From the IMG/VR virus record IMGVR_UViG_3300034157_000065, positions 1 to 64,000 of that record: a stretch of 64,000 nucleotides of DNA. One strand, given 5' to 3'. Positions 1-63,986 of this stretch are shown one piece after another. Below the pieces are notes generated by a model. It made no database searches. It saw only the letters and a program-made list of their open reading frames with translations, and had not been told where the DNA came from. How positions within the stretch are numbered: the stretch's first letter is position 1; the number at the start of each line of letters is the position of its first letter. The position numbers and the translations under genes are program-made. This stretch comes from a virus. Its lineage: Duplodnaviria; Caudoviricetes.

Positions 1-612
1 ATGAAAAGCTCTCAATGCGTCATGATGGTATTGCCCATACTATTGCATGTGTATTTAATGTATTTCTATGAAAAACCCAATGCTTTATTCCTTATGGTTA
101 ATCAATTTACAATCTTGATATCTTCATTGACACTTTTACTGATCTTTTTTAGGGCTTTTAGTCATTCATCCGCGATCAGTTTTTGTGCTGTTTTATTGAG
201 CTTTCTGTTTTATTTGAATGCGTATTTTAATGTGATGGATACCAATATCATTACTGGTATTTATTTGTCTTTACTGCTTTTTGGATCTATTTTCACTTCA
301 ATAAAATCTTTAATAACCATACAGGAAATTCATCAGATTGAGGGATTGAGAAAACTTCCTAAGTATGACTGCATTGAAATATCAGCTATCTCTAACTTTG
401 AAGACTCTTATGAAAAATTAGACCCGTATCAAAAGAACTTTACTAAATTTAAGTTTTACTACAAAAACTGCTATGCTTATGGTGGACAAATTTATTACAA
501 CGATGAAAAACATGACTTTTCCAATGTCAATAATTACCTCAATGAGCAGAAAATTGACATAAATCGGCTAACATCTGACGATTTCAAGCTGATATCTATG
601 ATTTTTATATGA
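1..612 (+). CDS. Membrane protein (about 4 N-terminal TM segments) with C-terminal M-x-x-I tag; paralogue of 17623..18252; may be 5'-truncated by the window edge
   Basis: Hydrophobic N-half; ends DDFKLISMIFI; soluble C-half aligns by eye with 17623..18252. Confidence 0.75.
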   Translation: MKSSQCVMMVLPILLHVYLMYFYEKPNALFLMVNQFTILISSLTLLLIFFRAFSHSSAISFCAVLLSFLFYLNAYFNVMDTNIITGIYLSLLLFGSIFTSIKSLITIQEIHQIEGLRKLPKYDCIEISAISNFEDSYEKLDPYQKNFTKFKFYYKNCYAYGGQIYYNDEKHDFSNVNNYLNEQKIDINRLTSDDFKLISMIFI

Positions 613-688
613 TTTTTTGATTTTTTTTGTTGCTTTTTAAATAATAAGTATGTTAATATATAACAACTTAAATAGTGAGGATATAATC

Positions 689-991
689 ATGAATAATCAA
701 CATTGTTTCTACGCTCTAAAAGATGGTAAATCATATCGTTCATTCAACCAGAATCCACTTCATTTCAAAATGTTTGAACAGGAAACTCCAATCAAGGTTG
801 TTGTCAATGTTTTAAATGATGAAGCCGAAAAATTTACTCATGTTGGGTTGCTGAATCAAAAAGGTCGCCTTGAACATATTCATACCGAAGCTAAACATGT
901 TAAAACATTTTTGGGTTTGAAAGAAGACGAAGAAGTTCCAGTCTACTCTGGTCGCATTGTTAAACTTCATGCGGCTGTCTTTGAAAGTTAA
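689..991 (+). CDS. Hypothetical protein
   Basis: GAGG RBS before ATG 689; terminator follows. Confidence 0.75.
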   Translation: MNNQHCFYALKDGKSYRSFNQNPLHFKMFEQETPIKVVVNVLNDEAEKFTHVGLLNQKGRLEHIHTEAKHVKTFLGLKEDEEVPVYSGRIVKLHAAVFES

Positions 992-1006
992 TTATTTAAG
1001 ATAGAG

Positions 1007-1036
1007 AAAAGGACATCATGAGATGTCCTTTTTTTT
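1007..1036. terminator. Bidirectional intrinsic terminator
   Basis: AAAAGGACATC-ATGA-GATGTCCTTTTTTT between convergent genes. Confidence 0.8.
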
Positions 1037-1037
1037 A

Positions 1038-1388
1038 TTAAGAATAATGTGTAAAAACATAAATAGTAAGGTTTAATTCATCTTCTGTAAAACCAAATGT
1101 CTCAACCAGTTCTTTTTTTAGCTTTTTATCACTGAATACTTTCTTATCAATCTCAGTCATTGGTATACCTTCGTAGCTTTCTCTGGATTTAGCAATCAGT
1201 TTACCAATGAAGGCATATTCACCAGACATTCCATCAACGATGACAACAGTATCACCTTTCTTTTGAGTTCTTCGGTTGGTATAAGCATCATGAAGACTAT
1301 CATTTTCTTCTATGTTATATTTTTCATTGTAGTCATCATAGGTCATTTTAATACCCAGTATGATGTAATGATTTTCGTTAACTGACAT
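1038..1388 (-). CDS. Hypothetical protein; distant paralogue of 32449..32826
   Basis: AGGAG RBS; both start MSVN..(Y/I)(I/L)IL and are acidic with similar length. Confidence 0.75.
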   Translation of the reverse strand: MSVNENHYIILGIKMTYDDYNEKYNIEENDSLHDAYTNRRTQKKGDTVVIVDGMSGEYAFIGKLIAKSRESYEGIPMTEIDKKVFSDKKLKKELVETFGFTEDELNLTIYVFTHYS

Positions 1389-2165: not shown

Positions 2166-2180
2166 GGTTATCAATACACA

Positions 2181-2237: not shown

Positions 2238-2272
2238 AGCCATCTCATTTAAACAAACACGAGGATTTAACT

Positions 2273-6218: not shown

Positions 6219-6321
6219 CAGATAAGCTCCTAGCGAGCTTTTCTTTTATTTACTTTTAAAAAATACATTTTCAAGTTTGACAAAATAGATATTTGAGCTA
6301 CATTATTTGTGGGAGAATTCT

Positions 6322-7146
6322 ATGAAATGGTTAAATAAATATTTTAATAAAAAAGTCACTAATGAAGATTTATTTCTAAATCATTTGAAGTCAACTTATG
6401 ATTTTGATGAAGCCTGCATAATTAAAAAAGATAATCCCGATTTTCTAACTATTATTAAAATTATTGCGTCGTCAGTTGTAGATAAAAATAATAAACCACT
6501 GGGTATAACCACACCAGACCCTAGTGTAGTTGAGAAATTAATACAAAAGATCCAATCAGAATGTGAATATTCTATTATTAAATTTTCACGTAACTACACT
6601 ATGTCAAAAGATCATCATTATGTTTTATTTTCAACCAATGTTAATGGCTACAGCATTCCTTTTAAATATTTGACTGATATTAATTTATTTGGTGAATTTC
6701 CTTACTTTAATTCATTTGAGCATGAAAAAAACTTGAAAAAAATAAAAAATTATAGGTTTATAAATAACAATCCTCGCCTGATACCTTCTTATTCAATTAG
6801 GATTCCATTAAAAGCAGATGGAAGATTAGCGAATTATACAGATTTTTTCTATACTGGCAGCGATTCTTGTTATCGTGATGTAGAAGTGATTATTGATGTA
6901 CATGAATTAGATGATCAAACTCATTATTGTATACAATTATTTTATGGAATAACTCTCTTAAAAGAAGGGACTGTTTCTGATCTGTTAAATTTTTCTTTGT
7001 TTTTAGATGATTTTTTATTTCCTTACAATTTAACAGAAAATATTATTAATGAAGTTGGTATTCCATTGCCACTAGAATTCACACCAGAATTTGTAAAGTA
7101 CATGAACAAAGATTTTAAGCTTACTATTGATATGTTAAAAATATAA
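6322..7146 (+). CDS. Family A paralogue 1 (M-x-x-I tag)
   Basis: Shares LKxxYDxD and FxFP motifs with the next two genes; ends DFKLTIDMLKI. Confidence 0.8.
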   Translation: MKWLNKYFNKKVTNEDLFLNHLKSTYDFDEACIIKKDNPDFLTIIKIIASSVVDKNNKPLGITTPDPSVVEKLIQKIQSECEYSIIKFSRNYTMSKDHHYVLFSTNVNGYSIPFKYLTDINLFGEFPYFNSFEHEKNLKKIKNYRFINNNPRLIPSYSIRIPLKADGRLANYTDFFYTGSDSCYRDVEVIIDVHELDDQTHYCIQLFYGITLLKEGTVSDLLNFSLFLDDFLFPYNLTENIINEVGIPLPLEFTPEFVKYMNKDFKLTIDMLKI

Positions 7147-7158: not shown

Positions 7159-8097
7159 ATGCCAATCATACCTAGAAAGAAAAGTATATCATCTACAATA
7201 ACACCATGCACCGATAGTTCACTGAATGCGTTATCCAATGCTTCTAATGAGAACTTTATGCAATACCTTAAAGAATTTTATGATTATGACGAAGTTTCCT
7301 TACATACATGTGAAAAAAATAATAAAGAATATGATTTAAATATCTTTGATGATGCTCTTCATTTTATATGTTTGAGTGTCTATGGAGATTATATGAAAGA
7401 TCAATATGCTCATTTTAAAAATAAAATTACTAACTATTTTGATGTCTTAAAAATTGTTAAATTAACCCATAACTATGAGAGACATTCTGTTAGTCATTAT
7501 TTAATTATTGATTCTTACTTTAATAAAGAAAATGAATATAAAATAATTATTCCGCATGATTGCAATGCCCTTAATCTTTTAAAAATAAAAGCAATGACGA
7601 TTAAACCCATCGATCTTCCTTATGAAGATTTTAATATGTTTTTTGAATTTAAAGAGATTAAGCATAAACTACCAACTTTTGATGTTTCTAATTTTTATTT
7701 TGAAACTGTGTTAGATATTAACTTGGAGGTACAGACATATCCTCCAATTCTTAAAGGTGAAGAAACTAAATCACATTATGGATTTAAATTATCAATTGGT
7801 GATTATACACGTAAAGCTCAAATAATTATAAGACACTATCCCGAAAATGTTGCTAACGAAGACAATTACATTTTGGATATAAAACTTGTACTAGGTGACT
7901 ATTTGATAAAAAGTGAAACAATCAAAGATATAATTTTTGTTAATGATCTAAATGAAACCATTGCGAAGTTTATCTTTCCGTTAGCTGAACATGTTGATTT
8001 CCTGAATGAACAAAATTTAAAACCAGAACTTACGAAAGAATTCATGGATCAAGATTTTAGTGATTTTTGGAATCTACACTTGATGTCACAAATATAA
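7159..8097 (+). CDS. Family A paralogue 2 (M-x-x-I tag)
   Basis: YLKEFYDYDE, FIFP; ends DFWNLHLMSQI. Confidence 0.8.
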   Translation: MPIIPRKKSISSTITPCTDSSLNALSNASNENFMQYLKEFYDYDEVSLHTCEKNNKEYDLNIFDDALHFICLSVYGDYMKDQYAHFKNKITNYFDVLKIVKLTHNYERHSVSHYLIIDSYFNKENEYKIIIPHDCNALNLLKIKAMTIKPIDLPYEDFNMFFEFKEIKHKLPTFDVSNFYFETVLDINLEVQTYPPILKGEETKSHYGFKLSIGDYTRKAQIIIRHYPENVANEDNYILDIKLVLGDYLIKSETIKDIIFVNDLNETIAKFIFPLAEHVDFLNEQNLKPELTKEFMDQDFSDFWNLHLMSQI

Positions 8098-8116
8098 ATG
8101 ATTTTTGGAGGAAGTT

Positions 8117-9046
8117 ATGTTTTGGAAAAGTAAAAATAAAAATCAAGATTTACAAATGACAGAAACATCTGTTACTCATACTAATCTACCGCTTGAAGAT
8201 CGCGATAAATTAGCTGAAACCAAGATAGTCAGAATGCTGACGTTTCTGAAAGCAAAATATGATTATGATGGTGTTGACTATTATCATTATCAGAAACCTT
8301 ATTCACAATATGCTGATTTATCAATTTTTGATTTGGCGTTAGGTTCTGTAACTGATAAGTATCTTGTCAAATACGGATTAGATGATGATTCTTCTTATGC
8401 TAAATCATTTAAAGAAGTTTTATTGAATAAGTTTTATTCTATTAAAATAGTCCATCTGTTTCGTTCTTATGGCGTCACTAGAAGAAGTGCCTATTTATTT
8501 ATTTATACTACATGTGATGATGATAACAATATTAGAGTGATTATACCTGATGATTACAATTTTTCTAATTTATTTGATGTTAAAGAGTACAATGACCCTT
8601 TTCTAACTTGCATAGATAAAAATTATATTACTAAATATGTAGAATTTAAAGAATTCGTTGACGGTGCTGGTAATTACAAATGTGGCTTAGAATCTGTTAA
8701 TGACATATTATTTAATGTTTCTGGTACGGGTGGTTGTATCTCTTTTAATACAGATGATCAAAACAATTCACGTTTTGGCAAACTCTGTGTTAGGTATTAT
8801 CCAGATGACGTTGATTATGATATAGATTACAAAATAGATTATCAATTAAGCTATGGTAAAAAAATAATCAAACAATCCGTAGTTGATGACTATTTCTTGA
8901 ATCGATCCATAGAAAACTTTATATTTCCACTCAATCAACCCAATCAAAGATTGGATGAGTTTGGACTGACACCATCCTTTACAGAAGAATACATGTCTCA
9001 GGATTTTACTGACTTTTTGACTATCAAGGATATGTTGAAAATTTAA
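8117..9046 (+). CDS. Family A paralogue 3 (M-x-x-I tag)
   Basis: FLKAKYDYDG, FIFP; ends DFLTIKDMLKI; GGAGG RBS. Confidence 0.8.
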   Translation: MFWKSKNKNQDLQMTETSVTHTNLPLEDRDKLAETKIVRMLTFLKAKYDYDGVDYYHYQKPYSQYADLSIFDLALGSVTDKYLVKYGLDDDSSYAKSFKEVLLNKFYSIKIVHLFRSYGVTRRSAYLFIYTTCDDDNNIRVIIPDDYNFSNLFDVKEYNDPFLTCIDKNYITKYVEFKEFVDGAGNYKCGLESVNDILFNVSGTGGCISFNTDDQNNSRFGKLCVRYYPDDVDYDIDYKIDYQLSYGKKIIKQSVVDDYFLNRSIENFIFPLNQPNQRLDEFGLTPSFTEEYMSQDFTDFLTIKDMLKI

Positions 9047-12783: not shown

Positions 12784-13647
12784 ATGAATAATTTAAAATT
12801 TGGCATTATGCTTTTAGTTTCAATTCTGTTTTGCGTCTTAGGTGGATATGCTATTGTCACCACTTATTATCAGACGGCTATAGGTGATTATGGTTATACA
12901 TTTGGAGAAGGCGTTAATTATGTGTTATTAACAATGTTCTCATTGTTTGGTCTTTTCGCTTTCTCATATGCTTCGACATTTTTAAATCAACCTAAAAAAT
13001 CGCTTGTATGGCTTATGGCTCTTGCTGTTGTCTTTGTTCCTATTATTTATTTTGGTGTATCATCATTGAGTAAAGAGGACAGAGTGTATCAACAAGCACT
13101 CAATAATTATGGTTCTAACTTCAATTTTATTGGAGCGGCCACGTTTACAAAAATCCAGCAGCATCCCGATTATATTCAATATAAGTATCAACTTGATAAT
13201 TTTGAAAAAGATAAAGAAAGTCGATCTGCTTATGTTGCCTTACTTAATGAAAGAGTGTCAAAGTATAGGAAATACTTAGACTCACAGAACTTTGGAAAAT
13301 CTTTTTTTGCAAGGAGTTATTATGTCTTTGGTTCAGACTATAATACATTCTTGTTTCGTTATAAGGGTGTAGAAAATGAAGCCGTTCAGAAAGAATTGTA
13401 TGAGATTACAAAACATGGTGTAGTTTCCTATAATGATATGATGGATTTTCAAGTAAAATTCGTTGACAATTATAAGAAACCAATCCAGAAAGATAATAAT
13501 GTAATTGAACCAACTACTGGCACTGGCACTGGCACTGGCACTGGCACTGGCACTGGCACTGGCACTGGCACTGGCACTGGCACTGGCACTGATGTTTTAA
13601 CACCCACTATACCCGAAAACAACAAAAACATTAAAGAAGGAGAATAA
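12784..13647 (+). CDS. 3-TM membrane protein, family B paralogue 2, with (TG)n tail
   Basis: QHPD and KFVDN shared with the next gene; Thr-Gly repeat. Confidence 0.75.
   Translation: MNNLKFGIMLLVSILFCVLGGYAIVTTYYQTAIGDYGYTFGEGVNYVLLTMFSLFGLFAFSYASTFLNQPKKSLVWLMALAVVFVPIIYFGVSSLSKEDRVYQQALNNYGSNFNFIGAATFTKIQQHPDYIQYKYQLDNFEKDKESRSAYVALLNERVSKYRKYLDSQNFGKSFFARSYYVFGSDYNTFLFRYKGVENEAVQKELYEITKHGVVSYNDMMDFQVKFVDNYKKPIQKDNNVIEPTTGTGTGTGTGTGTGTGTGTGTGTGTDVLTPTIPENNKNIKEGE
13516..13590 (+). repeat. Perfect hexanucleotide microsatellite (ACTGGC)12 + ACT
   Basis: Read directly; encodes (TG)12T in frame. Confidence 0.95.
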
Positions 13648-13651: not shown

Positions 13652-14668
13652 ATGACAACAACGACTACGAATGATTTAACAAGACCGGAAGAAAAATTAA
13701 CACGATCAGATTATGTAATTATGTCAATTGCTAGCGTTTTCGTGATATTTGCTATTTCTTTTCTTTTGAATGAGGTTATCACTTATCTTTTGGTTAATGC
13801 ATTTGGTTATAGTAATTTTGAAATTAGATTTTCTAACTACACAGAACTTTCCATTGTTCTTCTTGTGACGTTAGCATTCACTTCTTTAATTCTTGCCATC
13901 TTGCATAGATTGTTACTAACATACAGCATTATGACTCTGTTAATTTTAGCAATAACAACTACTATGTTTTTAGTACAAAAAAGTGGCATGACGACTGAAC
14001 AATATGCCTATCATACATCACTTAAACAATTTGAAAATCAATATTTGTTGTCAGGTGATAAGGGTTCAATTGCTTCCCAGCATCCAGATATGATTAATTT
14101 CTATGCTTATAAAGACAATAATCTTTTAAGTGAATCAACAAGACGTGATTATTTCAATATGTTATCGGCAACATCGACTAAGTTAAATGATATTTCTAAA
14201 TATACGACTGTTTACAATTTAGGTTTTTTTGCTGACTATTTCTTAAGTAAACAGGACAGTGATAAGTTTTTCATGGCTTATTCTGATGTTAAAGATCCTG
14301 AGTTACGGAATGAACTTGAATCTATGATGAAAAATCCACTTATTAAAACTTTAGACTATGCTGCATTTCATGCTAATTATAGAAAAAAGTTTGTTGAAAA
14401 CAATGCTTCGCTCGTAGATGTTAAATTACCTGTATATGTAACAACAGAGACTAAACGTGTGAAAATGACTGACCTACAAAACATATCCAGTATTATTCAT
14501 TTTTTTGATAACAATAAAGAAATTGCATTAACGCCAATAAAAACAGAATTTGTGAACTTGCTTTCTCAACCTTCTATTTCTATTGTTGACGTTGATCAAT
14601 TTAGACACAATTTGACGAGTGTGCTTAAATCAGATACCAAGCTCTATTCGTTAATGTCTCAATTATGA
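13652..14668 (+). CDS. 3-TM membrane protein, family B paralogue 3
   Basis: QHPD, KFVEN; ends DTKLYSLMSQL (borderline tag match). Confidence 0.75.
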   Translation: MTTTTTNDLTRPEEKLTRSDYVIMSIASVFVIFAISFLLNEVITYLLVNAFGYSNFEIRFSNYTELSIVLLVTLAFTSLILAILHRLLLTYSIMTLLILAITTTMFLVQKSGMTTEQYAYHTSLKQFENQYLLSGDKGSIASQHPDMINFYAYKDNNLLSESTRRDYFNMLSATSTKLNDISKYTTVYNLGFFADYFLSKQDSDKFFMAYSDVKDPELRNELESMMKNPLIKTLDYAAFHANYRKKFVENNASLVDVKLPVYVTTETKRVKMTDLQNISSIIHFFDNNKEIALTPIKTEFVNLLSQPSISIVDVDQFRHNLTSVLKSDTKLYSLMSQL

Positions 14669-16875: not shown

Positions 16876-17613
16876 TTAAATAACAAGCATTTCAATCACT
16901 TTTAGAGCATCTTTTGTCTTTCTAGGTATATTGTATTCTGCTTTTAAATACAACTCATAGAAGCAATGTTCAAAGGCATCAAAATAAGCTTTTGTTAATG
17001 TGACATTCTTACTGGTTTCTGATGTGTAAGTTCCGTAACGACCTTTTAAAGTTTTCTTTATTTTTTTATAATAATCCAAGGTAATCTTATTTTCAATGAC
17101 ATCATTTAATGCCAAAGTTAATTTTACGTTTCTTTCGTTGAAATGAAAAATAACCACATACTCAGCTTTACCTGTATGTAGATTGATTGTAATGCCATGT
17201 TGTCTTAGCAGTAGGTCGCTGATCAGTTCGCTAGCCGTGCTGTAAGACTTACGAGTATCGACTATGAATAAGTCTTTTAACGCATACCTGTTGACCACAT
17301 CAATAAAGTCTTTCGTCATAGCAATCATGGATTCATTGCTTAATAAATGGGCTGATATGCTTGGTGTCATCTTGTGGACTGATAATATTTTTTTTTCATC
17401 CTTATAGGTCACTTTAAGGATGTCATCATATTTTGTCATGATGCTGAAAGTGATGGAAATGGTTGTCATTCCTCGCATATTTTTGTCAATTGTATAATGT
17501 TGAAAACTTAAACTAGAATCAAATAAATTCCTTAATTGATCGTAGATTAATGAAATTTGCTCATGAGCTTCCATATAAACAAATCTTGATGGTAATGGAT
17601 TTCTATTGGTCAT
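16876..17613 (-). CDS. Hypothetical protein (M-x-x-I tag)
   Basis: Ends DALKVIEMLVI. Confidence 0.75.
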   Translation of the reverse strand: MTNRNPLPSRFVYMEAHEQISLIYDQLRNLFDSSLSFQHYTIDKNMRGMTTISITFSIMTKYDDILKVTYKDEKKILSVHKMTPSISAHLLSNESMIAMTKDFIDVVNRYALKDLFIVDTRKSYSTASELISDLLLRQHGITINLHTGKAEYVVIFHFNERNVKLTLALNDVIENKITLDYYKKIKKTLKGRYGTYTSETSKNVTLTKAYFDAFEHCFYELYLKAEYNIPRKTKDALKVIEMLVI

Positions 17614-17622: not shown

Positions 17623-18252
17623 TTAATATTTCAACATTTCGAGTGTTTTCAAACTGTCATTATCAAAGTCTTTGATTGATACCATTGATTCTTGGGTGTA
17701 TCTTTTGACATCTTCAACAGAAATATTAGTGCCTTTCACCCCTTTGTTATCAAATTTGATACCATTGTTGATGTAGGTATACAGTTCATCTCTGAATTTC
17801 ATCTTCCGTTCTTTTGCCGATTTAAATGGATTAAGTTGACCGAAATCTTGAATAAAAATAGTTAAATCTGGCTTAGCATCATAGTCCTGACTAAATTTAC
17901 CATCTTTTAAAATTTCATTCAGAAATTTTGAATCAATTGCAAATAAAGCAATTAGAGTAACAGACATAATTACGCTTGATGTAGTGCCGAAGTCATACTT
18001 TGCTTGGCCGAACCCAACACAGAGACATAATACTGTTAGAATGATCTTATTCTCAATACCTCTTAGGATGATAGCTTTTGATATTAAGACATTAATGTAA
18101 GCATACAGATTGCCTAATGTAATCGCTACACCAATCAATGCAGTGTATTTATTTTCAGCATAGTGGTAATACCCATAGGTCGCAAACAAACCTAGCAGTA
18201 CCAGTAGCAAGTAAGGTTGGAAAATAAAGGCCATTTTCATTTTAAAATCCAT
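17623..18252 (-). CDS. 4-TM membrane protein (M-x-x-Y tag); paralogue of 1..612
   Basis: Hydrophobic N-half; ends DSLKTLEMLKY. Confidence 0.75.
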   Translation of the reverse strand: MDFKMKMAFIFQPYLLLVLLGLFATYGYYHYAENKYTALIGVAITLGNLYAYINVLISKAIILRGIENKIILTVLCLCVGFGQAKYDFGTTSSVIMSVTLIALFAIDSKFLNEILKDGKFSQDYDAKPDLTIFIQDFGQLNPFKSAKERKMKFRDELYTYINNGIKFDNKGVKGTNISVEDVKRYTQESMVSIKDFDNDSLKTLEMLKY

Positions 18253-19908: not shown

Positions 19909-20014
19909 TTTAATCCATTTTGAATCATTGATGGTACAAAAAAAATTGATTTAAAAGTCCTAATGTGTTATCTTAATGCCACTTCTTGTGGCATTTTTTT
20001 TTGGAGAATATTTA

Positions 20015-20764
20015 ATGCGAGTTCGAATTGATTTAAAAACAGTCAAGCTTATTAAAACATTCAACCCGCATGTTGACGTGAACGCTTTATATTTGCCAGT
20101 AGAAAATGTTTTTGAAGAAAGAGATGCTTCTGTTCGAACTAAACAATTGACTCGTAAATTAAGCATTCAAGAAGAATATGACTTCATCTATTGTTATGCT
20201 AAAGAAAGCTTCACAAATTTTAAAATTGTCAGTGACAAAACAACTTATTACGTTATTGTTGATGGTGTTGTGCTGAGTGTTCCCCATGACATTGAAGTGG
20301 ACTATGGTTTCAGTCTGCATAAAATGTTAGTAAACGATTATGAAAATCAAACAAAGCATGTAGATAACATGTTAAAAGCAGCTTACATTAACCTTTATAT
20401 GTCAAAAGAACACAATGTTTCTAAGCATGTTTTCAAAAGTCTATTTATTGATTTTTTTACATCTAAAGTTTTTAATGAGCGTAAAATTTTGGCAGGTGGT
20501 TCTTTGAACCGTAATTTTGTTTGTGAATTGACATATCTAGGTCACCGATTTTCATTCTCTACCTTTGCAGCTTCATCAGGTGTTTTGGTTGAGTTTAACT
20601 TTCCAGAATTTAAATTTAGAAAGTGTTACCCCATCAGCTCTTATAATATAGATAAATTCATTCTTGATTTTGTGAATGAACCCGAGTATAATTGTAAATC
20701 TACGAAGGAAGCTACTCAGCACCTTAATGATTATATCTTAATCCGTAAAATGGCGAACATTTAG
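20015..20764 (+). CDS. Hypothetical protein (M-x-x-I tag)
   Basis: GGAG RBS; ends DYILIRKMANI. Confidence 0.75.
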   Translation: MRVRIDLKTVKLIKTFNPHVDVNALYLPVENVFEERDASVRTKQLTRKLSIQEEYDFIYCYAKESFTNFKIVSDKTTYYVIVDGVVLSVPHDIEVDYGFSLHKMLVNDYENQTKHVDNMLKAAYINLYMSKEHNVSKHVFKSLFIDFFTSKVFNERKILAGGSLNRNFVCELTYLGHRFSFSTFAASSGVLVEFNFPEFKFRKCYPISSYNIDKFILDFVNEPEYNCKSTKEATQHLNDYILIRKMANI

Positions 20765-38852: not shown

Positions 38853-38883
38853 TTGTGTAATAGACATATGAGGATTAATACTA

Positions 38884-39333: not shown

Positions 39334-39420
39334 TCATTATCCTTCGTTATTCTTAAAGATATCTTCTGTTTTTATTTTTTTTGTGGTATAATGCCATTAT
39401 TAAAACAGGAGATTTCCTTC

Positions 39421-40209: not shown

Positions 40210-40260
40210 TCATTAAAGATCAGATACAAAAAAGCCTGATTGATTTCAGGCTTCTTTTTT

Positions 40261-41157: not shown

Positions 41158-41169
41158 TTTGGTATCCTT

Positions 41170-42033: not shown

Positions 42034-42051
42034 TTGCTTTTACTTTTATTT

Positions 42052-42918
42052 TCAAATCATTACCATGTCTAAGAACTCTATGTCCCTTTTATCAAAGTAG
42101 CCATCATCTTTAAAGTTTTCTGATAAAATGTTAGGTTTTATTTCTTTTATAAGATCATTTGAAATATACTGATTTTTATAATAACAGTGGACTTCAAGTG
42201 GATGGTCATCAAGATCAGTTACTACAATAGCAGGCACGATTCTTTCAGCCACTGGGTTTTTGATTAGTCTGACCCATATACCAAGTTCTTTGTAATAATG
42301 GAGTTCCATATAGCTCTGTTTTGTTTCATAGTTAAAAACATTATTACTACTGATAATATTTGAATTTTTACATTCGATAACGCTTGGTTTTGAATTATCG
42401 AAGTAGTAGACCAATTCATTATCAATATTTTTTACGAATGTTTTCTTGTTCGCAAAAAGCTTCTCTTTATCGTTTACAAAGCTTAAATGGACTGTCATAT
42501 CAGCATTGTCAACTGAATTGTCTAACAGTTCAATAATCGTAGCCTCATCTTCGCTGACGATAACAAACTCATTGTTGTACAAAAATTCTTTAAAATTGGT
42601 AAGATTGATGTCCATTAGATGTTCATATTTCTTTTCATTTTTTGGATAGCTATTGAATTTAGGAAAGGACTCAATCCAAGAATCAAATAGCGTCATGTTC
42701 ATCGGCGTTATAGGTGGCATATTTAGTATAGGTAATGAAAATGTTGATTTAGTTCTTGGCTGCACACCATTTTGGCTTACACTTTGACTTAAACTTTGTT
42801 TTGTATTATTCCAAAAATGTGAAGGTGTCGGCATCCCAAACAAAAGATCTTCGTCTCCCCAATTAAGGCCATGAATGAAATTTATTGTTATTTTATGTCT
42901 TGACATAATGTTCTCCAA
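42052..42918 (-). CDS. Family C member (M-x-x-I tag)
   Basis: YYFDNSKPS, VPAIV, EVHCYYKN; ends DIEFLDMVMI. Confidence 0.8.
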   Translation of the reverse strand: MENIMSRHKITINFIHGLNWGDEDLLFGMPTPSHFWNNTKQSLSQSVSQNGVQPRTKSTFSLPILNMPPITPMNMTLFDSWIESFPKFNSYPKNEKKYEHLMDINLTNFKEFLYNNEFVIVSEDEATIIELLDNSVDNADMTVHLSFVNDKEKLFANKKTFVKNIDNELVYYFDNSKPSVIECKNSNIISSNNVFNYETKQSYMELHYYKELGIWVRLIKNPVAERIVPAIVVTDLDDHPLEVHCYYKNQYISNDLIKEIKPNILSENFKDDGYFDKRDIEFLDMVMI

Positions 42919-48288: not shown

Positions 48289-50652
48289 TTACAAACCTTT
48301 ACATACGGCACTACTTAATGGACCTGCACCTGCTTGTTTTGTGTATAGATACCCATCAGAAGCTCTTAATGATGTTACGTTTTTTGCTGTAATTAATGCA
48401 GTTGTTGGATTTCCACCATATGACTGTGTTATTACAACAGCTCCGTTCCAAATTACTCTTATTAGTGGGTTAGGTGCCACTGTCCATGAATTACTTGAAC
48501 TGTATGCTTGACAAGTATAAGCTGTTCCTATTACATTTTGGGTTGGTGTTGTGTTTATAGGTGAGCTTTCTAATATTTGGGCACCATTATTTCTAATAGC
48601 ACTAGTGCCTGTTTCTATTTGTCTTTCTTGTCTATATCTTGTATTAGGTTGCGAACAACTTCTACTTTGCGTAAATGAACTACCAGCAGGTTGGCTTGCT
48701 ACAGTTGGTGACCATGCTGAACATGTTACTGAACCCAATACCCATGATGTATATGTTGGTGTTGTCGCTATCCAGTTTTCAACCTGAACGTTTATTGTTT
48801 TAGACACAGTTGTTCCAGCAATACTTGATCCTGTTACAGTGTAGGTAAATGTTCCAGCGGCTGTTGGATTGATAGCTAATGAATTAGCTGCAGCAACGAC
48901 CATACCAGATGTCGATACGCCTGAACCATTGTTGTTTGATGAAACAGTGTAACTGACAATATCATTACCTGTCCAGCTAAGTGTGAAAGATGTGTTGATG
49001 TTCACAACAGATGGAGCTGTTAAGTTACCCATTACTGGATTGCTTGCTACGTTAACTGTTACTGCTCTTACTGGACTGTATCTTGTTACACCGTTAACTG
49101 TTTTAGTAGCCGCCATGTAATAGCTGTAACTGCCTATTCCCATTGGAGCATTTGATGGGTGTGAAGCTACTGCATCATTTGCACTTGTTCTTGGTTGAGC
49201 AACTGCACCAGTACTTGCACCTGAACCCACAAAGGACAATGCAGCGTTAGGAGCTACCGTCACCGCTGCTTGCCCGTTTACAGTAAAGCTACCTAATGTT
49301 GGGTCAGCTTCAACAGCAACTGTTGTTGTCTTAACCAATTCTTTGTTAACAAGGTTAGTGCCTGTAATCGTATATTCAAAACTACCAGTGGCTGTTGGTG
49401 TAACAGTATACGTTGTTGCCGTTCCGACATCTTGTGAACCACTCACACCAGATTCTGAACCATTTGATGACAACTTGTAGTTGGATATGTTACTACCTGA
49501 CCAGTTGAAAACAACAGGAGCATTGGTGAAGCTACTGACTGGACCCGAGAAGGATGGTAATGCACCTGCACCGACTACGTTAACACTGATTGTTTTATCA
49601 ATTGTTTTTCCAGCCCCATTAGTGCCAACTAACACATAGTTTTGGGAACCTGTTGTATCAGCAACCGCCGTGTGATGACCATTAGCAACTGTTGTTCCAT
49701 TCAATGAGTAACTTTCGTTGTTAGAACCAGTCCATGTGAAATCTAATGCGGCATTCTGTTCAACCGTTATCGCTGCATCGCTGTTGTTTATTTTATAAGA
49801 AGCAATGGTTGGAAGACCATAAACAGTTACGTTGATTGGACTACTTGTATCTTCAAGACCACTTAAACTGGTTGTTTTCAATGTGTAGTCGAAACTCCCT
49901 ACACTTCCAACTGTTACTGTTTTAGAAGTGTCTGTTGTATTGACTGCACCAAACGGACTTAACTCTAAACCTTCACTGTCATTGACCGACCAATTAAATG
50001 TTACGTTGTCGCCAATAGTTACCTTCGTCTTGTCACTTGTAAAGCTGTTTACTTTTGAAGTGTTAACCACGTCAATTGACAGCATTCTGTTCGTGTTGTT
50101 TTCGTTGTTGTAACCTGTTACAGACATTTTGTAAGTTGTATCTTGGGTTGGAACAACTGAGAAGTTGCCAGACAGGCTTACGTTACCAATGGCATTATCT
50201 ATGCTTACCGCTTCGGCATCAGTCACATTCCAATTCAGTTTGACTGGTTGACCAAATCCTACTTTCAATTTATCAGCATTGAAACTGACAACAGGCGTTG
50301 GTTGTATTACTGTAAGTTTTAAAGTCTTTTCTTCTATTTTTTTCTCGTTGTCCAAAGTAATAATATAATCAGTGGTTACTAATGGGGATAATGGATATGA
50401 ACCAAATGAAGAAGACTCATCAAAGTTCTTATCAGATGAAATTACTTTTAAACTTTTAATATAGTTATAATTCCAGTTTAATGCAGTAGATTCACCACGA
50501 TTAATCGTAGCAGGTGCAAAGTCTATTGTTCCTGTAATTTCATCTGGCGTGTCAATATTCATGTGTTGTGGATCTAATGGCATTCTTACCATGTAACCGG
50601 CAGAGGCTATTGAAACTGTCAAGACTGACAGTAATATTATTTTCTTATTCAT
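48289..50652 (-). CDS. Large secreted Ig-like/PKD-repeat adhesin-like protein, copy 1
   Basis: Signal peptide; repeated F...L.W...Y.L...G beta-sandwich units; TSP-like WxxW/Cys segment; C-terminal Cys-closed tip domain. Confidence 0.8.
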   Translation of the reverse strand: MNKKIILLSVLTVSIASAGYMVRMPLDPQHMNIDTPDEITGTIDFAPATINRGESTALNWNYNYIKSLKVISSDKNFDESSSFGSYPLSPLVTTDYIITLDNEKKIEEKTLKLTVIQPTPVVSFNADKLKVGFGQPVKLNWNVTDAEAVSIDNAIGNVSLSGNFSVVPTQDTTYKMSVTGYNNENNTNRMLSIDVVNTSKVNSFTSDKTKVTIGDNVTFNWSVNDSEGLELSPFGAVNTTDTSKTVTVGSVGSFDYTLKTTSLSGLEDTSSPINVTVYGLPTIASYKINNSDAAITVEQNAALDFTWTGSNNESYSLNGTTVANGHHTAVADTTGSQNYVLVGTNGAGKTIDKTISVNVVGAGALPSFSGPVSSFTNAPVVFNWSGSNISNYKLSSNGSESGVSGSQDVGTATTYTVTPTATGSFEYTITGTNLVNKELVKTTTVAVEADPTLGSFTVNGQAAVTVAPNAALSFVGSGASTGAVAQPRTSANDAVASHPSNAPMGIGSYSYYMAATKTVNGVTRYSPVRAVTVNVASNPVMGNLTAPSVVNINTSFTLSWTGNDIVSYTVSSNNNGSGVSTSGMVVAAANSLAINPTAAGTFTYTVTGSSIAGTTVSKTINVQVENWIATTPTYTSWVLGSVTCSAWSPTVASQPAGSSFTQSRSCSQPNTRYRQERQIETGTSAIRNNGAQILESSPINTTPTQNVIGTAYTCQAYSSSNSWTVAPNPLIRVIWNGAVVITQSYGGNPTTALITAKNVTSLRASDGYLYTKQAGAGPLSSAVCKGL

Positions 50653-51774: not shown

Positions 51775-54141
51775 TCAAGGCGTACTACAAACTTGCCAGA
51801 ATCCACCTGTGACGTTTGGCCCTCTTGTGTATGACTTACCATCCCAACCAGTGATTTGAGTCACGTTCATGGCACCAGCACCCGGATATTGTGATGAGGT
51901 TGCTTTTGTTCCGCCATTCCAAACTACGTTAACCAATGAGTTGGCACCACCTACAACAACTGTCTGCCACTGGTTACCCGAGTCATATCGACACACGATG
52001 GTTGGTTTGGTACCAATAGCATATTGTGTATTGGGTTGGTTGCTCAATGTTTGAGATTCCCCCACGGCTGTTGTATTTCTTACTTCACCTGTTGCTACTT
52101 CTTGTATACGATCTTGACGTGTTCTTGATTGGTTCAAGTAACAGTATTGTGTTTGATAAAAACCTGTTCCTGAGTTTACTTCACTTACGGCTGGTGAGAA
52201 TGCTGTACAACTGTAGAAACCACTGCTGTTAACCCATCCAGTGTAAGTAGGAGCGATTGCAACCCACTGCTCGACCTTAACGTTTCCAGATGTTCTGGCC
52301 GTTGATATTCCAGCGGCGTTTGTTGCTGTCACTGTATAATTATAGGTTCCTGCTGCTTGTGGTGTTACACCTAATGCTGCACCGGCACCAGTTGACACTC
52401 CAGCTACCGCTACACCAGAAGCCGCAACGTTCCCTTTAACTGTGTAGCTTGCAACATCAGTTCCACTCCATGATAATGTAAATCCCGAACCATAGTTGAT
52501 GATGGTTGGTGTTGATATGGCACCAATCGTTGGAGCATTTATAACCGAAACTGTGACTGATCTTAATGCACTGTCTCTGGTTACTCCATTTATAGTCTTA
52601 GTTCCAGCACCATAATAAGTTGAAAACCCAGCAGAAGCTGACGCATTTGATGGTAATAAGCTTGTCACTCCACCAGAAGTTTTACCTACCAATGTAGCTC
52701 CACTGCTCAAACCAGTTCCCACAAATGATAAAGCTTGGTTTGGAGATACCGTAATAGATGATTGACCATTTACTGTCATTCCTGCCATCGTTGGATCAGC
52801 TTCCACCATAACACTGGTTTTCTTCACTGTTGTTTTGCTTGCAGCATTAGTTCCTGTTAATGTGTATTCTAAACTACCTACTGCGGTTGGTGTTGTTGTA
52901 TAGGTTAAAGCAGTTCCTACATCTTGTGAACCACTTATACCTGAACCTGCAACACCTGATAATTTATAGTTATTGATATTAGTTCCTGTCCAGTTTAGAA
53001 CAATAGGTGTATTAGCAAATGTTGTTGGCACTGTTGAGAACGATGGAATGTTACCTGCACCCACTACATTGACACTGACTGATTTATTGATTGTTTTACC
53101 CGCTCCATTCACACCTGTTAAGACATAGTTCTTCGTGCCTGTTGAAGCGTCTGCATTCACCGTGTAGGTTCCATTTGACACAGCGACTCCATTGATGTCA
53201 TAACTAATATTGTTTGCACCAGTCCATGTGAAGGCTAATGGATCATTCGCTTCAACTGTTACCGATGTGTCACTGTTGTTAACTTTATATGAAGTGATGG
53301 TTGGAAGACCATAAACACTCACGTCAATAGGATTTGATGTTTTCGTCATTCCACTAAAACTGGTTGTTTTCAATGAATATGTAAAGTCACCTACGGTTCC
53401 CATTGTTACTGCTTTACTGGTTGATGTTTTATCTACGGTACCGAAAGGAATTAACTCTAAGCCTTCACTGTCATTGGTTGTCCAGTTAAAGGTGATATCA
53501 TCACCAATGCTTACTTTGGTCTTGTCAGATTGAAAACTGCCTATTGCAGAATCCTTTACAACATCAATTGAAATTGATTTACTGGTATTATTCTCATTGT
53601 TGTAACCTGTCACATTAAGCTTGTAGGTTGTATCATTAACCGGCGAGACGGTATAGGAGCTATTTAACCCACTGATTCCTGCATTTTCAAGTAAAGCTGA
53701 TTCAGCATCTGAGACATTCCATGTAAGCTTAGAAGACTGGCCTTCACCAATCTTTGTTTTATCCGCCGTAAAGCTAACCACAGGCGTAGGCTGTATCACT
53801 GTCAGTTTTAAAGTTTTTTCTTCAATTTTTTTATTGTTGTCTAATGTGATATCGTAATTAGTCGTCTTTAATGGCGATAATGGATACGAACCAAAATAGG
53901 CTGTCTCATTAAAGCTTTCATCGGATGAAACGACCTTTAAACTTTTTATATAATTGTAATTCCAGTTTAAGGCTGTTGATTCACCACGATTGATGGTTGC
54001 AGGTGCCAGTTCAATAACCCCTGTAATTTCATCAGGTGTGTCTATATTGATATATTTAGGATCTAATCTGAACGTGGCGACATAACCCGCAGACGCGATT
54101 GATACTGTCAAGACGGACAGCAATATTATTTTTTTATTCAT
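51775..54141 (-). CDS. Large secreted Ig-like/PKD-repeat adhesin-like protein, copy 2
   Basis: First 20 aa identical to 48289..50652, collinear throughout, divergent tip. Confidence 0.8.
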   Translation of the reverse strand: MNKKIILLSVLTVSIASAGYVATFRLDPKYINIDTPDEITGVIELAPATINRGESTALNWNYNYIKSLKVVSSDESFNETAYFGSYPLSPLKTTNYDITLDNNKKIEEKTLKLTVIQPTPVVSFTADKTKIGEGQSSKLTWNVSDAESALLENAGISGLNSSYTVSPVNDTTYKLNVTGYNNENNTSKSISIDVVKDSAIGSFQSDKTKVSIGDDITFNWTTNDSEGLELIPFGTVDKTSTSKAVTMGTVGDFTYSLKTTSFSGMTKTSNPIDVSVYGLPTITSYKVNNSDTSVTVEANDPLAFTWTGANNISYDINGVAVSNGTYTVNADASTGTKNYVLTGVNGAGKTINKSVSVNVVGAGNIPSFSTVPTTFANTPIVLNWTGTNINNYKLSGVAGSGISGSQDVGTALTYTTTPTAVGSLEYTLTGTNAASKTTVKKTSVMVEADPTMAGMTVNGQSSITVSPNQALSFVGTGLSSGATLVGKTSGGVTSLLPSNASASAGFSTYYGAGTKTINGVTRDSALRSVTVSVINAPTIGAISTPTIINYGSGFTLSWSGTDVASYTVKGNVAASGVAVAGVSTGAGAALGVTPQAAGTYNYTVTATNAAGISTARTSGNVKVEQWVAIAPTYTGWVNSSGFYSCTAFSPAVSEVNSGTGFYQTQYCYLNQSRTRQDRIQEVATGEVRNTTAVGESQTLSNQPNTQYAIGTKPTIVCRYDSGNQWQTVVVGGANSLVNVVWNGGTKATSSQYPGAGAMNVTQITGWDGKSYTRGPNVTGGFWQVCSTP

Positions 54142-57571: not shown

Positions 57572-58360
57572 TTAAATTGCCATCATTTTAATAATGGTCA
57601 GATTTTCATCTAGTCCGCTATCAAATACGCCAGTTTTATATAATTTTTTCATTTCTGTATAAAATAGCTCTAATGTTTCATTACTATCAACATTTCTAAT
57701 ACTGAATTGTGGATACAGATCGATGAACGTCTCTAATGATTGTAAAATAACGTTTATATTTTTGTTAAAAAATTCATCAAAGTTATCTATACTTTCAACA
57801 TCAGCTTTAAAAACCATGTCTTCATTATTCGATTTGTAATCGTAGAGAACTAATAAATCTTTTGTTTTCTGTCCATCTGCAGTAAACGAATACCTTACCA
57901 TGAAATCATCATACGATGTGTCTGTCATATCAATTGAACGCTCTACATCATAATCGAGCATGTCATTATGTGCATTTATATCAGCGTCTACGGTAAAGAA
58001 TTGACTTGTCGCTGGGAACTTTACACGGTTATTATAAATACCAACCTCAGTCGAAAAGCTTATATTTTTAAAATTTCCCAATTTATCGTAATTAAAGCGA
58101 AGATTACCAGCAAGATTTTGAAAACCGTAGACGACGATGGCGGTTCCATTATCACCTACCATATAACGCTCAATTCGAACTGCATCAAAATTTGTTTCTG
58201 AGTCAAACGATTGATTAATTTGATTAAACCAATGAACAATCCTATGTTTAAAATAAAATTGATATTCTGGTTGCAGTTTAACCATGACTATTCGTCTATC
58301 TTTTAAAATAGAAAAGTCAGGATTCAAGTAGTCGAATGTTACCGTTTCATCAGTTTTCAT
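57572..58360 (-). CDS. Distant family D member (M-x-x-I tag)
   Basis: LQPEYQFYFKHRIVHWFNQIN resembles LSAEQCLYFKNVLVQKLSLIN; ends ENLTIIKMMAI. Confidence 0.75.
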   Translation of the reverse strand: MKTDETVTFDYLNPDFSILKDRRIVMVKLQPEYQFYFKHRIVHWFNQINQSFDSETNFDAVRIERYMVGDNGTAIVVYGFQNLAGNLRFNYDKLGNFKNISFSTEVGIYNNRVKFPATSQFFTVDADINAHNDMLDYDVERSIDMTDTSYDDFMVRYSFTADGQKTKDLLVLYDYKSNNEDMVFKADVESIDNFDEFFNKNINVILQSLETFIDLYPQFSIRNVDSNETLELFYTEMKKLYKTGVFDSGLDENLTIIKMMAI

Positions 58361-61394: not shown

Positions 61395-61420
61395 ACTTAA
61401 CTTATTTGGAGAAATAGACT

Positions 61421-61828
61421 ATGTATCAATCATTTCAAGACTTCATCAAGAAAACTGAAGAGTCCCATGCGGCTATGGTAGCTACGGCTAATGAGAAACC
61501 AAGTTTGGAAACTTACCGTGATACAGTGGCTAAATTGCTAGGTCATGATGACATTCATTCTCTGGAAGCATCTTTGGATAGTAATTATCAACCCAGTTAT
61601 GTCTTGGTGTATATGTGGCAAGGTGTGACAGATACTATTCGCACCTATAAAGCGACTGACTCTGGTAAAGAACAGATGTTGGAAGACTTCTCTGAGAAGG
61701 TTAAAGATCGACTTGGCATTCTTCCCGATGGTAGTTTGTCAGATGAATCACAGGCTCTGTTAGATACGGCTATTGATGACATGTTTTATGAAGATTCAAA
61801 AGTAACCGTTACTTGTTACAAAGTTTAA
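61421..61828 (+). CDS. Hypothetical protein sharing the N-terminal helical module of the ATPase at 4575
   Basis: RDTVAKLLGHDDIHSL vs LDDLAKLLGYTSYNEY. Confidence 0.65.
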   Translation: MYQSFQDFIKKTEESHAAMVATANEKPSLETYRDTVAKLLGHDDIHSLEASLDSNYQPSYVLVYMWQGVTDTIRTYKATDSGKEQMLEDFSEKVKDRLGILPDGSLSDESQALLDTAIDDMFYEDSKVTVTCYKV

Positions 61829-61883
61829 ATTGTGTTAACAAAAAAGCCATCTTCGGATGGCTTTTTTATTCTTTTAAATCTAT

Positions 61884-62942
61884 TCAATCACACGTTGTAA
61901 TCAACAAGCCATGCTCTTTATTGAATTTAACACTGTCTTTATTTTTCAATATTAATATTTGTTGTAAGTTAGTTAATCCTTCTGTCTGGTTATTAATCAG
62001 TTCAGCGACCGCATTGACGCCACCTTTCTCGAAAGCCTTGATAGTTGCTATGTCACGAGTTAGTTGACCGTCAGTTATATTCCGTCTAATTGCCAGTATA
62101 GACTTCTTATACTCTTCTGGGTATTTTGTTTGGAGGTAATCTGATTTATTGGCGGTATAATAATTTAGAAATTCTTTCCTCAATCCGATCAACTCTTCAT
62201 TGCTAAATTTTTCATAATTATTTTTAAAATAGTTAATTTCACCCAAACCATCTAGTTTTTCAATGTAATCATTGACAACAACTTCGGTCACTTCTATACC
62301 AAGAGCACCTGATATCTTATTATAACTGGGAGCACCACATAATTTTGCCGAAAGTTCATGTCTTTTGTTTACTTTATCATTTTCAAGTTGTTGTTCTGTT
62401 GCTACGATAAGAGCAGCAATAACACTAAATGTCACGGCTAGTTTCAAGAACCCTTTATTGACACTCAATTCATCATGAAAAAATTTGTTAGCACAAAACA
62501 ATGCCAAAACAATAATAAAGGCATACATTATGTAGGTTAATGTGAGTATTGCTTCTGTTTTTTCTGGATTCAAGTCGGTGGCTATTTGGCCTACTGAATA
62601 AGTAATCATACATAAGAGTATTGATTTAGACGTTAATTGTAAGTACGCAGTTTTATAGGGTTTTCCTAGAACATAATACTTGAATACAAGTAAAAATATG
62701 AAAAAAATAGCATACACCAAATTAAGTTGGCTTCTAAACAGATCAAATGCTGAACCTGTCGTTAAACTTAAATATTTAGTGTAACTCTCAGAATTATCAA
62801 ATAAGGTGACGATTTCCATGATCCCATTTGTTAATCCCATACCTAAACTCATTAAACATGTGTATAGAAATATTCCTATAAAACACCCAAATAATAGTTT
62901 TTTTTCTCTTTTGTCTTCGTTCATGAAAATTCTCCTTTGCAT
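61884..62942 (-). CDS. Multi-pass membrane protein with a C-terminal soluble domain
   Basis: About 5 TM segments. Confidence 0.75.
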   Translation of the reverse strand: MQRRIFMNEDKREKKLLFGCFIGIFLYTCLMSLGMGLTNGIMEIVTLFDNSESYTKYLSLTTGSAFDLFRSQLNLVYAIFFIFLLVFKYYVLGKPYKTAYLQLTSKSILLCMITYSVGQIATDLNPEKTEAILTLTYIMYAFIIVLALFCANKFFHDELSVNKGFLKLAVTFSVIAALIVATEQQLENDKVNKRHELSAKLCGAPSYNKISGALGIEVTEVVVNDYIEKLDGLGEINYFKNNYEKFSNEELIGLRKEFLNYYTANKSDYLQTKYPEEYKKSILAIRRNITDGQLTRDIATIKAFEKGGVNAVAELINNQTEGLTNLQQILILKNKDSVKFNKEHGLLITTCD

Positions 62943-63062
62943 AATTAGACCACTATCCTATTAAATGTCAATAATTTATGAAAACATTAAAATTTTGGTT
63001 TATTTTTTATTGTAAATGTGGTATTATCTCAAAATATTTATTCATATTAAGAGGCATTGTTA

Positions 63063-63986
63063 ATGCAAATCATTCATCATAATAAAACCACTGTCCAAAG
63101 ATCGTCTAAAAGAACATTATCTGCTAACTTGTTGTCTTTTCTTGATGAAACAAGCCAACGATTCGGTTTTGATAATGCTCAAATCTATCATTTAACACAT
63201 AGTAATGTTGGTGATTATAAAGATATTATTATGACAACCATTAAGGAGCATTTAAAGAAAATGCGAGGTCTTGGGCCAAAAGATAAAATGGAGGAAGTCA
63301 TTAAAGAAGCAGATCGCTATTATGAGGAACTTCAACCTATTTTACCAACGTCTATGATTGTTTTTGAGCATATCTATTTCTCTGTAACTGAATCATCTAT
63401 GTTGTTTTTTAAAGAACATAATGAAATGTTATTTATTGAAAATATTATGTCTACTTTGGAATTAAATCGCCCACATTTTATTATTGACAACCTTATTATG
63501 CCCAATGGTAGCTGGAAAATGCCTGTTGTACAATCCATTGCTTATGAAAGTTCGAGTGTGAAAGGAACTTTTCCGTTTCTATCATTTCTGTTTCCCTACA
63601 ATGAAAAAACGTCTAAAATTGATTTTAGTCAACGTGAAAAAGCTCACAATAAAAAACTCGAATTACAAGTCAGAACACTTCGTATGGGCCAAGATGAAGC
63701 TATAAAACTTAAGATTCCACATAACATAGACAGTTTTAATATTAATCTTGATAATGCCTATGTTTTCAATACTCGGTTAATACATAATGACATTATTATT
63801 TTTAACGAATATGATATTTCAATCAATGATGATCGTAAAACAGTTGTCGCATATTTAATGCCGTTTCTTGAAGATTTACAAGAAAAGTATGAAATCAATG
63901 ATGATGTTCCAGTGACTTTAACAAAAGAATATTATGACTATTTTAAGGCTAATATTAGGCCCGTTATTGACATGGTAATGTGCTAA
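63063..63986 (+). CDS. Hypothetical protein (M-x-x-C tag variant)
   Basis: Ends PVTLTKEYYDYFKANIRPVIDMVMC. Confidence 0.75.
   Translation: MQIIHHNKTTVQRSSKRTLSANLLSFLDETSQRFGFDNAQIYHLTHSNVGDYKDIIMTTIKEHLKKMRGLGPKDKMEEVIKEADRYYEELQPILPTSMIVFEHIYFSVTESSMLFFKEHNEMLFIENIMSTLELNRPHFIIDNLIMPNGSWKMPVVQSIAYESSSVKGTFPFLSFLFPYNEKTSKIDFSQREKAHNKKLELQVRTLRMGQDEAIKLKIPHNIDSFNINLDNAYVFNTRLIHNDIIIFNEYDISINDDRKTVVAYLMPFLEDLQEKYEINDDVPVTLTKEYYDYFKANIRPVIDMVMC

Follow-up and report, generated by a model that had tools for sequence, protein, structure and literature searches.

A methionine-anchored tag, locked to the C-terminus, on many proteins of an IMG/VR virus record: a candidate docking helix

The stretch of DNA analysed here (the window) comprises the first 64,000 nucleotides of the 192,830-bp virus record IMGVR_UViG_3300034157_000065 (34% G+C, standard genetic code), which is classed in IMG/VR as a 'provirus' with a CheckV completeness of 59%. 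The record is dense in small genes, few of which have a recognised family. The recognisable genes encode a T4-type RNA ligase 1, an Rnl2-like ligase, RegB, a dCMP deaminase, an NAD kinase, a signal peptidase, a tryptophanyl-tRNA synthetase (TrpRS), a ribosome recycling factor, a sirtuin and a cation-efflux protein, and no capsid, terminase, polymerase or clamp was found in the record. Our subject is a short C-terminal tag, centred on a methionine at the fourth position from the chain end (Met(-4)), which an original prediction made from the letters of the window had described on about 20 of its proteins. All 18 tails listed there, together with the two considered borderline, can be read in the sequence as quoted; two gene starts were slightly off (6307 instead of 6322, and 63057 instead of 63063), the tail sequences themselves being correct. 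The tag is genuine: it occurs throughout the lineage, is under selection as part of the protein and is locked to the terminus.

Met(-4) occurs in 19 of the 76 window open reading frames (ORFs) of at least 100 aa and in 61 of the 304 ORFs of the whole record, in which methionine makes up 2.9% of residues overall; 57 of these 61 end in a hydrophobic residue. The excess persists when paralogues are collapsed, a check proposed with the original prediction: 29 of 194 BLAST clusters bear Met(-4), against 5.5 expected (binomial P = 4.7e-13). The other terminal positions from -1 to -10 account for 2-11 clusters each, and a comparable spike is seen at -4 only. A family-weighted logo reads D(-11), Phi(-9), K/L(-8), Phi(-7), Phi(-6), D/E(-5), M(-4), Phi(-3), x, I/Y(-1), where Phi denotes a hydrophobic residue; the cross-family signal is limited to the last 11-15 residues, with none beyond about -15 and no protease-site pattern ahead of the tag. 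The similarity that had been claimed to extend 25-30 aa upstream exists within families but not across them. Among 57,127 residues, the core motif is found 32 times at a terminus and 10 times internally.

Related records and a control phage were compared with the whole 192,830-bp record (G000): a 152-kb close relative (G001), a 437-kb record (G002), a 290-kb record (G005) and, as the control, a huge phage (G006) whose complete 368-kb genome has terminal repeats and encodes a T4-type terminase as well as an RNA ligase 1 that is 40% identical to its G000 counterpart. G001 has the same tags as G000. Met(-4) is present in 101 of 595 ORFs of G002, whose proteins common with G000 are typically 25-75% identical, and in 43 of 364 ORFs of G005, where the spike is again confined to -4; the control phage has no spike, with a flat profile and Met(-4) in 7 of 375 ORFs. 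Orthologues of G000 and G002 that are only 25-35% identical retain Met(-4) even when the last residue has changed to His, Gln or Glu, and in about a quarter of the clear tags in G002 the last residue is N, Q, E, T, H, D, S, A or K, with Met(-4) still in place. Thus, the methionine and its distance from the end form the core of the tag, whereas the I/Y at -1 assigned to it earlier holds in the logo of this record and is not fixed in relatives. A class II PDZ ligand (Phi-x-Phi-COOH) was rejected as an explanation, given how often the last residue is non-hydrophobic in G002.

The tag is recognisable even when its methionine is disregarded. A matrix anchored at the C-terminus was trained on G002 and G005 without its Met column; with the threshold set at the 99th percentile of G006, 49 of 60 Met(-4) ORFs of G000 lie above threshold versus 4 of 191 other ORFs, and two of these four are visibly decayed or shifted tags. 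Natural Met(-4) variants of this kind are present in G000 at 184846-185976 (-) and 176002-176799 (+); one has its Met at -3 after an otherwise perfect tail, and one, a member of a tandem array, has Ile replacing Met. Over the tag, codon positions 1 and 2 are conserved, whereas third positions vary freely and there is no conservation past the stop codon; therefore, selection acts on the protein. The free third positions and unconserved post-stop sequence also rule out a DNA-level signal, such as a promoter, ribosome-binding site or terminator overlapping the gene end. An alternative genetic code that would split genes into fragments was rejected as well. A 36-column tail profile gave no matches among 1.84 billion representatives, a result that does not inform prevalence because the motif is too short for HMMER and the terminal anchor is unusable; a local 24-column hidden Markov model of the tail recovers just 5 of 60 carriers. 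Neither tblastn of one carrier against cultured phages nor megablast of 12 kb returned a match, and we found no description of the tag in the papers covered by a literature search.

Two of the carriers in the window are membrane proteins with a soluble C-terminal portion. The gene at 1-612 (+) encodes a multi-transmembrane (TM) protein with three hydrophobic segments and a soluble C-terminal part of about 90 aa, in which the tag, scoring above the matrix threshold, occupies the last 11-14 codons; that at 17623-18252 (-) encodes a 4-TM protein with a soluble tail domain, whose G002 orthologue (29% identity) retains Met(-4) and ends in His. The carrier at 6307-7146 (+) is soluble (279 aa) and has a 26%-identical G002 relative that retains Met(-4). 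Other carriers with relatives that keep the tag are encoded at 16876-17613 (-; 245 aa, tag retained in G005), 19976-20764 (+; 262 aa, tag retained in the 31%-identical G002 orthologue) and 34046-35251 (+; 401 aa, Met(-4) retained in the 33%-identical G002 orthologue, the last residue of which is His), and the 262-aa carrier at 57572-58360 (-) has three copies in G001. The tails of the 313-aa carrier at 8105-9046 (+) and of the carrier at 27933-28706 (+), which has a singleton body, are as originally quoted. Homology of bodies is apparent between the carriers at 33206-33982 (+) and 35261-36079 (+), which are paralogues of one another and of two genes at 85-87 kb (hhalign, 94%). Three tandem paralogues lie at 40261-41157 (-), 41170-42033 (-) and 42052-42918 (-). 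The gene at 37641-38573 (-) belongs to the same family, and its alignment identifies it as a true tag member whose register is displaced by one extra terminal residue. Weaker tails are found at 7159-8097 (+; matrix score -0.7), in a paralogue of 8105-9046; at 21758-22504 (+; -1.6), on a body that looks largely helical; at 24851-25594 (+; 1.5), in a distant member of the 37641-42918 family; and at 63057-63986 (+; -4.2), where the tail ends in Cys and is retained by the G001 orthologue. The borderline gene at 13652-14668 (+) has Met(-4) with a remaining tail that does not fit (score -9.7), and its paralogue at 12784-13647 has no tag; from its sequence, this methionine is probably a chance occurrence or a decayed tag.

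We asked how far kinship among the carriers accounts for the distribution of the tag. BLAST groups the carriers of the record into 25 clusters; the window accounts for 14 of these, rather than the "about 10 families" first estimated. After trimming of the last 35 residues, hhalign of the bodies linked 1 of 300 family pairs. A jackhmmer analysis of 201 carriers from three genomes, each trimmed of its last 20 residues, merged a 14-gene tandem array with a dispersed family at 102-166 kb and left 96 clusters of bodies. The view that the carriers are otherwise unrelated, and that paralogy is insufficient to explain the tag, is therefore upheld at the level of sequence, where detectable homology leaves the pattern unexplained, although the bodies may be kin at the level of structure. 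None of the 20 window carriers has a match in Pfam, and a match was obtained for just 2 of 135 further carriers, compared with roughly one in five other ORFs.

The cellular location of the carriers was assessed with a stricter pattern, requiring two hydrophobic or small residues at -7 and -6 in addition to Met(-4), which selects 156 carriers among ORFs of at least 100 aa in G000, G002 and G005. No hydrophobic segment is present in 144 of these; about ten have 3-5 segments, and one has a lone N-terminal segment. The 4-TM membrane carriers of the original prediction are confirmed. Such lone, signal-like segments occur in 81 of 955 other ORFs (Fisher 9e-5). Judged by these predicted segments, the tag sits on cytoplasmic and polytopic membrane proteins and avoids exported ones; its reported absence from recognisable enzymes and signal-peptide proteins is borne out by these figures and by the Pfam searches of the window carriers.

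Structural models were obtained by AlphaFold for two carriers. One, a member of the 14-gene tandem array modelled from 19 sequences (pLDDT, the predicted local distance difference test score, 90), has N-terminal helices, eight strands and C-terminal helices, the last of which (residues 226-258) ends in the tag. The other, the carrier at 40261-41157 (23 sequences), has a disordered N-terminus followed by an alpha/beta domain (residues 80-298; pLDDT 80-92) of two helices, about ten strands and a terminal 11-residue helix (287-297) that corresponds to the tag and is predicted with a pLDDT of about 90. Fold searches of both models (Foldseek PDB, VIA wide, ESM Atlas) found no convincing known fold, with best Z values of 6.4 and 3.0, and the two lists of matches do not overlap; a feature search of the Atlas was likewise without a match. 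In the logo, the hydrophobic residues at -9, -7, -6, -4, -3 and -1 span more than one face of a helix, from which it follows that the tag helix would have to be buried somewhere.

The record is a fragment of a larger contig. Its end (192,830) falls inside a tandem family, which a near-identical JGI contig directly continues with a further two paralogues of 248 aa, both tagged. On either side the record stops where a gene ends, which is what automatic trimming would produce, and the placement of the IMG/VR cut bears no relation to the tagged families. Proteins of the window families are found on JGI contigs of 1,917,244 and 1,851,360 bp. G002 encodes a full-length DnaK (182807-184708) that stands alone among orphan genes, without GrpE or DnaJ, and is 73% identical to Pseudomonas DnaK; copies of 84% identity lie on four contigs of 1.84 Mb (1,843,594 bp), 1.85 Mb, 1.86 Mb (1,859,102 bp) and 1.92 Mb. 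On the 1.85-Mb contig (JGI 3300028584 Ga0308423_1259934), a window-like locus at 315-336 kb and DnaK at 651-669 kb are about 330 kb apart, and both are surrounded by orphan genes and tagged proteins. The DnaK gene there has no GrpE or DnaJ neighbour either; a Pfam entry could be assigned to 2 of 20 neighbouring genes, one of them faintly, and clear tags are present on 3 of 18 complete genes. The same contig has an IS605 OrfB/TnpB gene inside the carrier array equivalent to that at 37-43 kb of the window, where it is absent; three such genes occur in G002.

G002 also encodes GatA/B, LigA, several aminoacyl-tRNA synthetases, NAD-salvage genes, a tripartite pump and a chemoreceptor. There are 26 tRNA genes in G002 and 35 in G005, many of them duplicates and including suppressors with the CUA (amber) anticodon, and ARAGORN detects only three in G000. 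G005 has up to nine tRNA-Leu UAA genes, and the standard code fits the ORFs despite the CUA suppressors. The original prediction had treated the sequence as an 'element'; although the record is phage-like, this status is doubtful, as the same genes occur on 1.84-1.92-Mb contigs, which belong either to a highly unusual cell or to a phage-like replicon whose size goes far beyond any described so far. Overall, the sequence resembles a bacterium less than it does a very large replicon that is phage-like or otherwise novel. The largest phage genome that we found in print measures 735 kb (PMC7162821), and we found no phage-like replicon above this size in the literature. A lineage whose contigs reach 1.84-1.92 Mb and look phage-like rather than cellular deserves attention.

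These observations can be drawn together by proposing that the tag is a docking helix that stays constant while the bodies bearing it vary, and that a single cytoplasmic partner reads it, an explanation to which we assign a probability of about 0.5. The last 11-14 residues would form a short helix, with an acidic N-cap at its start and Phi-Phi-[D/E]-Met-Phi-x-[I/Y]-COOH at its end, that acts as an unvarying docking label for a large and rapidly evolving set of otherwise different alpha/beta proteins. Met(-4) and its hydrophobic neighbours would plug into one pocket of the single partner, and the chain end three residues past the methionine would be part of what the partner reads, which could account for the fixed register to the C-terminus. 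Differing specificities or activities would come from the variable bodies while the tail tethers all of them to the same machine, and the few polytopic membrane carriers would display the same label at the inner face of the membrane. A tag that is position-locked, selected and carried by bodies that profiles do not link, with ends facing the cytoplasm, is as a common cytoplasmic reader predicts. The existence of the tag, its selection, its terminal lock, its persistence on bodies that have diverged past recognition, its helicity in two models and its avoidance of exported proteins are direct findings; the partner is what we infer from them. The proposal that one receptor reads the tag fits all of these features, but a receptor was not found in the lineage records examined (193, 437, 290, 162 and 179 kb, all of them fragments of larger contigs). 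These fragments yielded no match for VirB4, an ABC transporter, a gp45-type clamp, a family-B polymerase or a T4-type terminase. Among ten conserved non-carrier unknowns scanned as candidate readers, seven have no Pfam match and three are enzyme-like (a metallophosphatase and weak methyltransferase matches); another ten conserved non-carriers, among them NAD kinase, RNA ligases and signal peptidase, gave no hint of a reader.

In its logic, such a system would resemble peroxisomal targeting signal 1 (PTS1), which is read by PEX5, and the CaaX box, eukaryotic labels that are carried by many unrelated proteins and defined by distance from the free C-terminus. Like the tag, CaaX has an invariant residue at -4 followed by aliphatic residues; however, these labels use other residues in another kingdom, and no reader or modification is known here, so that the analogy is one of logic only. 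A short constant C-terminal part that docks on one hub is also known from the ankyrin/PRANC (F-box-like) families of poxviruses and from the ClpX-tethering tail of SspB. Like the carriers, the PRANC proteins are virus-encoded paralogues, present in large numbers, that combine a variable recognition part with a short constant C-terminal one, but PRANC is a domain of ~40 aa that binds Skp1, whereas the constant part here is a single helix of about 12 residues. We tentatively entertain the stronger proposal of a prokaryotic address label of the PTS1/CaaX type, in which a single reader has a pocket for a methionine at exactly the fourth position from the free C-terminus and through it handles 13-20% of the proteins of an undescribed, phage-like replicon of ~1.85 Mb that consists mostly of orphan genes; if this were true, the size of the replicon would exceed that of any described phage. 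Should one partner indeed read the tail, a short peptide would provide a handle on some 50-100 otherwise uninterpretable proteins per genome, and a hub (protease, ring, loader or channel) organising a fifth of the proteome would be predicted. The tail could also serve as a portable targeting tag, and since the carriers look like a diversifying repertoire, the system may be a general means by which very large mobile genomes connect new specificities to a single machine.

Several observations weigh against a docking helix. No reader was found in the records listed above, and the tag is not visibly attached to recognisable folds, where a label that moves freely between proteins would be expected. 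Carriers are of similar size (median 250 aa) and share the same order of secondary-structure elements, families A and B are merged by deeper profiles, and common descent may explain part of the spread. In addition, the confident placement of the tail (pLDDT 83-91) in models that contain no partner would fit a helix packed on its own body. Much of this would be accounted for if the carriers were a single hyper-diverged, massively expanded paralogous superfamily in which a C-terminal capping helix ends the fold and the tail, as the best-conserved element of the core, has no external reader. That the carriers uniformly lack Pfam domains and often stand in tandem arrays agrees with this idea, as do the helix, 8-9 antiparallel strands and terminal helix of both models, the high tail pLDDT of these monomers, and the joining of F10 with F18, in addition to A with B, by deeper profiles. 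It is the main rival of the docking helix, but we regard it as rather doubtful. It must contend with the 96 body clusters left by jackhmmer, with two models that have no common fold-search matches and whose last helices measure 33 and 11 residues, and with 4-TM carriers that have only about 90 soluble residues; moreover, a purely structural helix should not fix one distance from Met to the end while all other core positions vanish.

If the docking reading is correct, an AAA+ protease or unfoldase, for which the tail would act as a degron or adaptor tether, seems somewhat the likeliest kind of reader; particle loading or co-injection, a sliding-clamp-like ring and a secretion coupling protein follow with about equal weight, and other readers come last. 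Taken by itself, each specific proposal (clamp, secretion coupling, particle loading, protease) is improbable. In T4, the tails of gp43, gp33 and gp55 can replace one another as ligands of the gp45 clamp (PMC2988020). The tag might analogously be a sliding-clamp client motif, like these hydrophobic-acidic C-termini of T4 and RB69, and hold the carriers on a clamp-like ring. In RB69 gp43, the last seven residues are Phi-Phi-D-M-Phi-x-Phi-COOH, in the same pattern and register as the tag, the T4 gp43 tail is similar with Phe replacing Met, and the record encodes a T4-type RNA ligase 1 and RegB. As in our carriers, a short hydrophobic-acidic motif at the extreme C-terminus is common to unrelated proteins of one phage, but the clamp tails occur on three or four DNA or transcription proteins and the tag on 50-100 unannotatable proteins, including membrane ones. 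No known clamp toolbelt comes near to fifty or a hundred clients, the carriers cannot be recognised as enzymes of DNA or RNA (Pfam 2/135, and 0/20 in the window), and the likeness is only seven residues long. Nine T4 and four RB69 proteins (including gp43, gp45, gp44/62, gp46 and UvsX) have no homologue in G000, G001 or G002; PF09116 has no match in G000 or G001, nor does phmmer match T4 gp45 in G000, G001 or G002, all of which are fragments. This reading is improbable, and the RB69 match is a lead only.

Two further proposals, both quite improbable, place the tag in a secretion or packaging pathway. The replicon might be a cell, or part of one, such as a reduced gammaproteobacterium, with the tail as a translocation signal for Dot/Icm-like or other secretion and the carriers as effectors. 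Dot/Icm (type IVB) effector signals lie at the C-terminus, combine upstream acidic residues with a hydrophobic one near -3/-4, and are carried by hundreds of orphan-like proteins; effector sets are typically large, rich in orphans and quick to evolve, and some Dot/Icm substrates are known to have TM segments. The 1.84-1.92-Mb contigs, the Pseudomonas-like DnaK, and the GatA/B, LigA, aminoacyl-tRNA synthetases, OEP/HlyD/MFS pump and chemoreceptor of relatives would all suit a cell. On the other hand, Pfam coverage is far too low for a bacterium, DnaK stands alone without GrpE or DnaJ, the tRNA sets are redundant with amber suppressors, and there are RNA repair genes of T4 type together with RegB. 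None of the carriers has a eukaryote-like domain, and neither the VirB4 family (PF03135, five records) nor ABC_tran has a match in the fragmentary lineage records. The Dot/Icm signal is, moreover, a loose, disordered C-terminal stretch of 20-35 aa with a Glu-rich block, in contrast to a fixed motif with an invariant Met that is helical in two models. As to type I secretion, ABC_tran is again without a match, and the OEP, HlyD-type and MFS proteins of G002 fit an efflux pump rather than a type I secretion system. Alternatively, the tag could be a cargo-loading label that packs carriers into the virus particle for co-injection: it is terminal and common to many proteins, and the carriers form a large, diverse set of small, fast-evolving proteins, as expected for anti-defence arsenals acting on entry. 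The cargo-loading peptide of encapsulins and the T4 capsid-targeting sequence are likewise terminal peptides common to unrelated cargo, but their sequences are unrelated to the tag, polytopic membrane proteins bear the tag here, and a shell or capsid gene was not found in the lineage records. No capsid, portal or terminase gene was detected in about 1 Mb of lineage sequence, no terminase or structural PHROG among the large proteins of the fragmentary records, and the tag is not preceded by a protease-site pattern.

Other features of these genomes are recorded here as separate observations. Most members of the 14-gene tandem array (169034-180847 of G000) begin with a conserved M-x-T-I-Y-[D/E] head, which may resemble the N-terminal capsid-targeting sequence of T4 internal proteins. 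The sole virion-like signal in the window comes from two paralogues of 787 and 788 aa, encoded at 48289-50652 and 51775-54141 (-), in which only a 140-residue stretch matches PHROG 2155 ('virion structural protein') and which show 39% identity to a protein of Synechococcus phage S-PM2. TrpRS (163079-164074 of G000) is 95% identical between G000 and G002, where neighbouring orthologues are 25-80% identical, and the comparison suggests either very strong constraint or recent exchange; the only match found for it among species genomes (47%, in a metagenome-assembled genome of uncultured Bacilli) is uninformative on the host. Finally, three trypsin-like paralogues of ~200 aa (Trypsin_2, below cut-off) are encoded in G000 at 118648-119286, 131162-131866 and 187405-188007; at least one has a lipoprotein-type signal, and the family is also conserved in G002 and G005.

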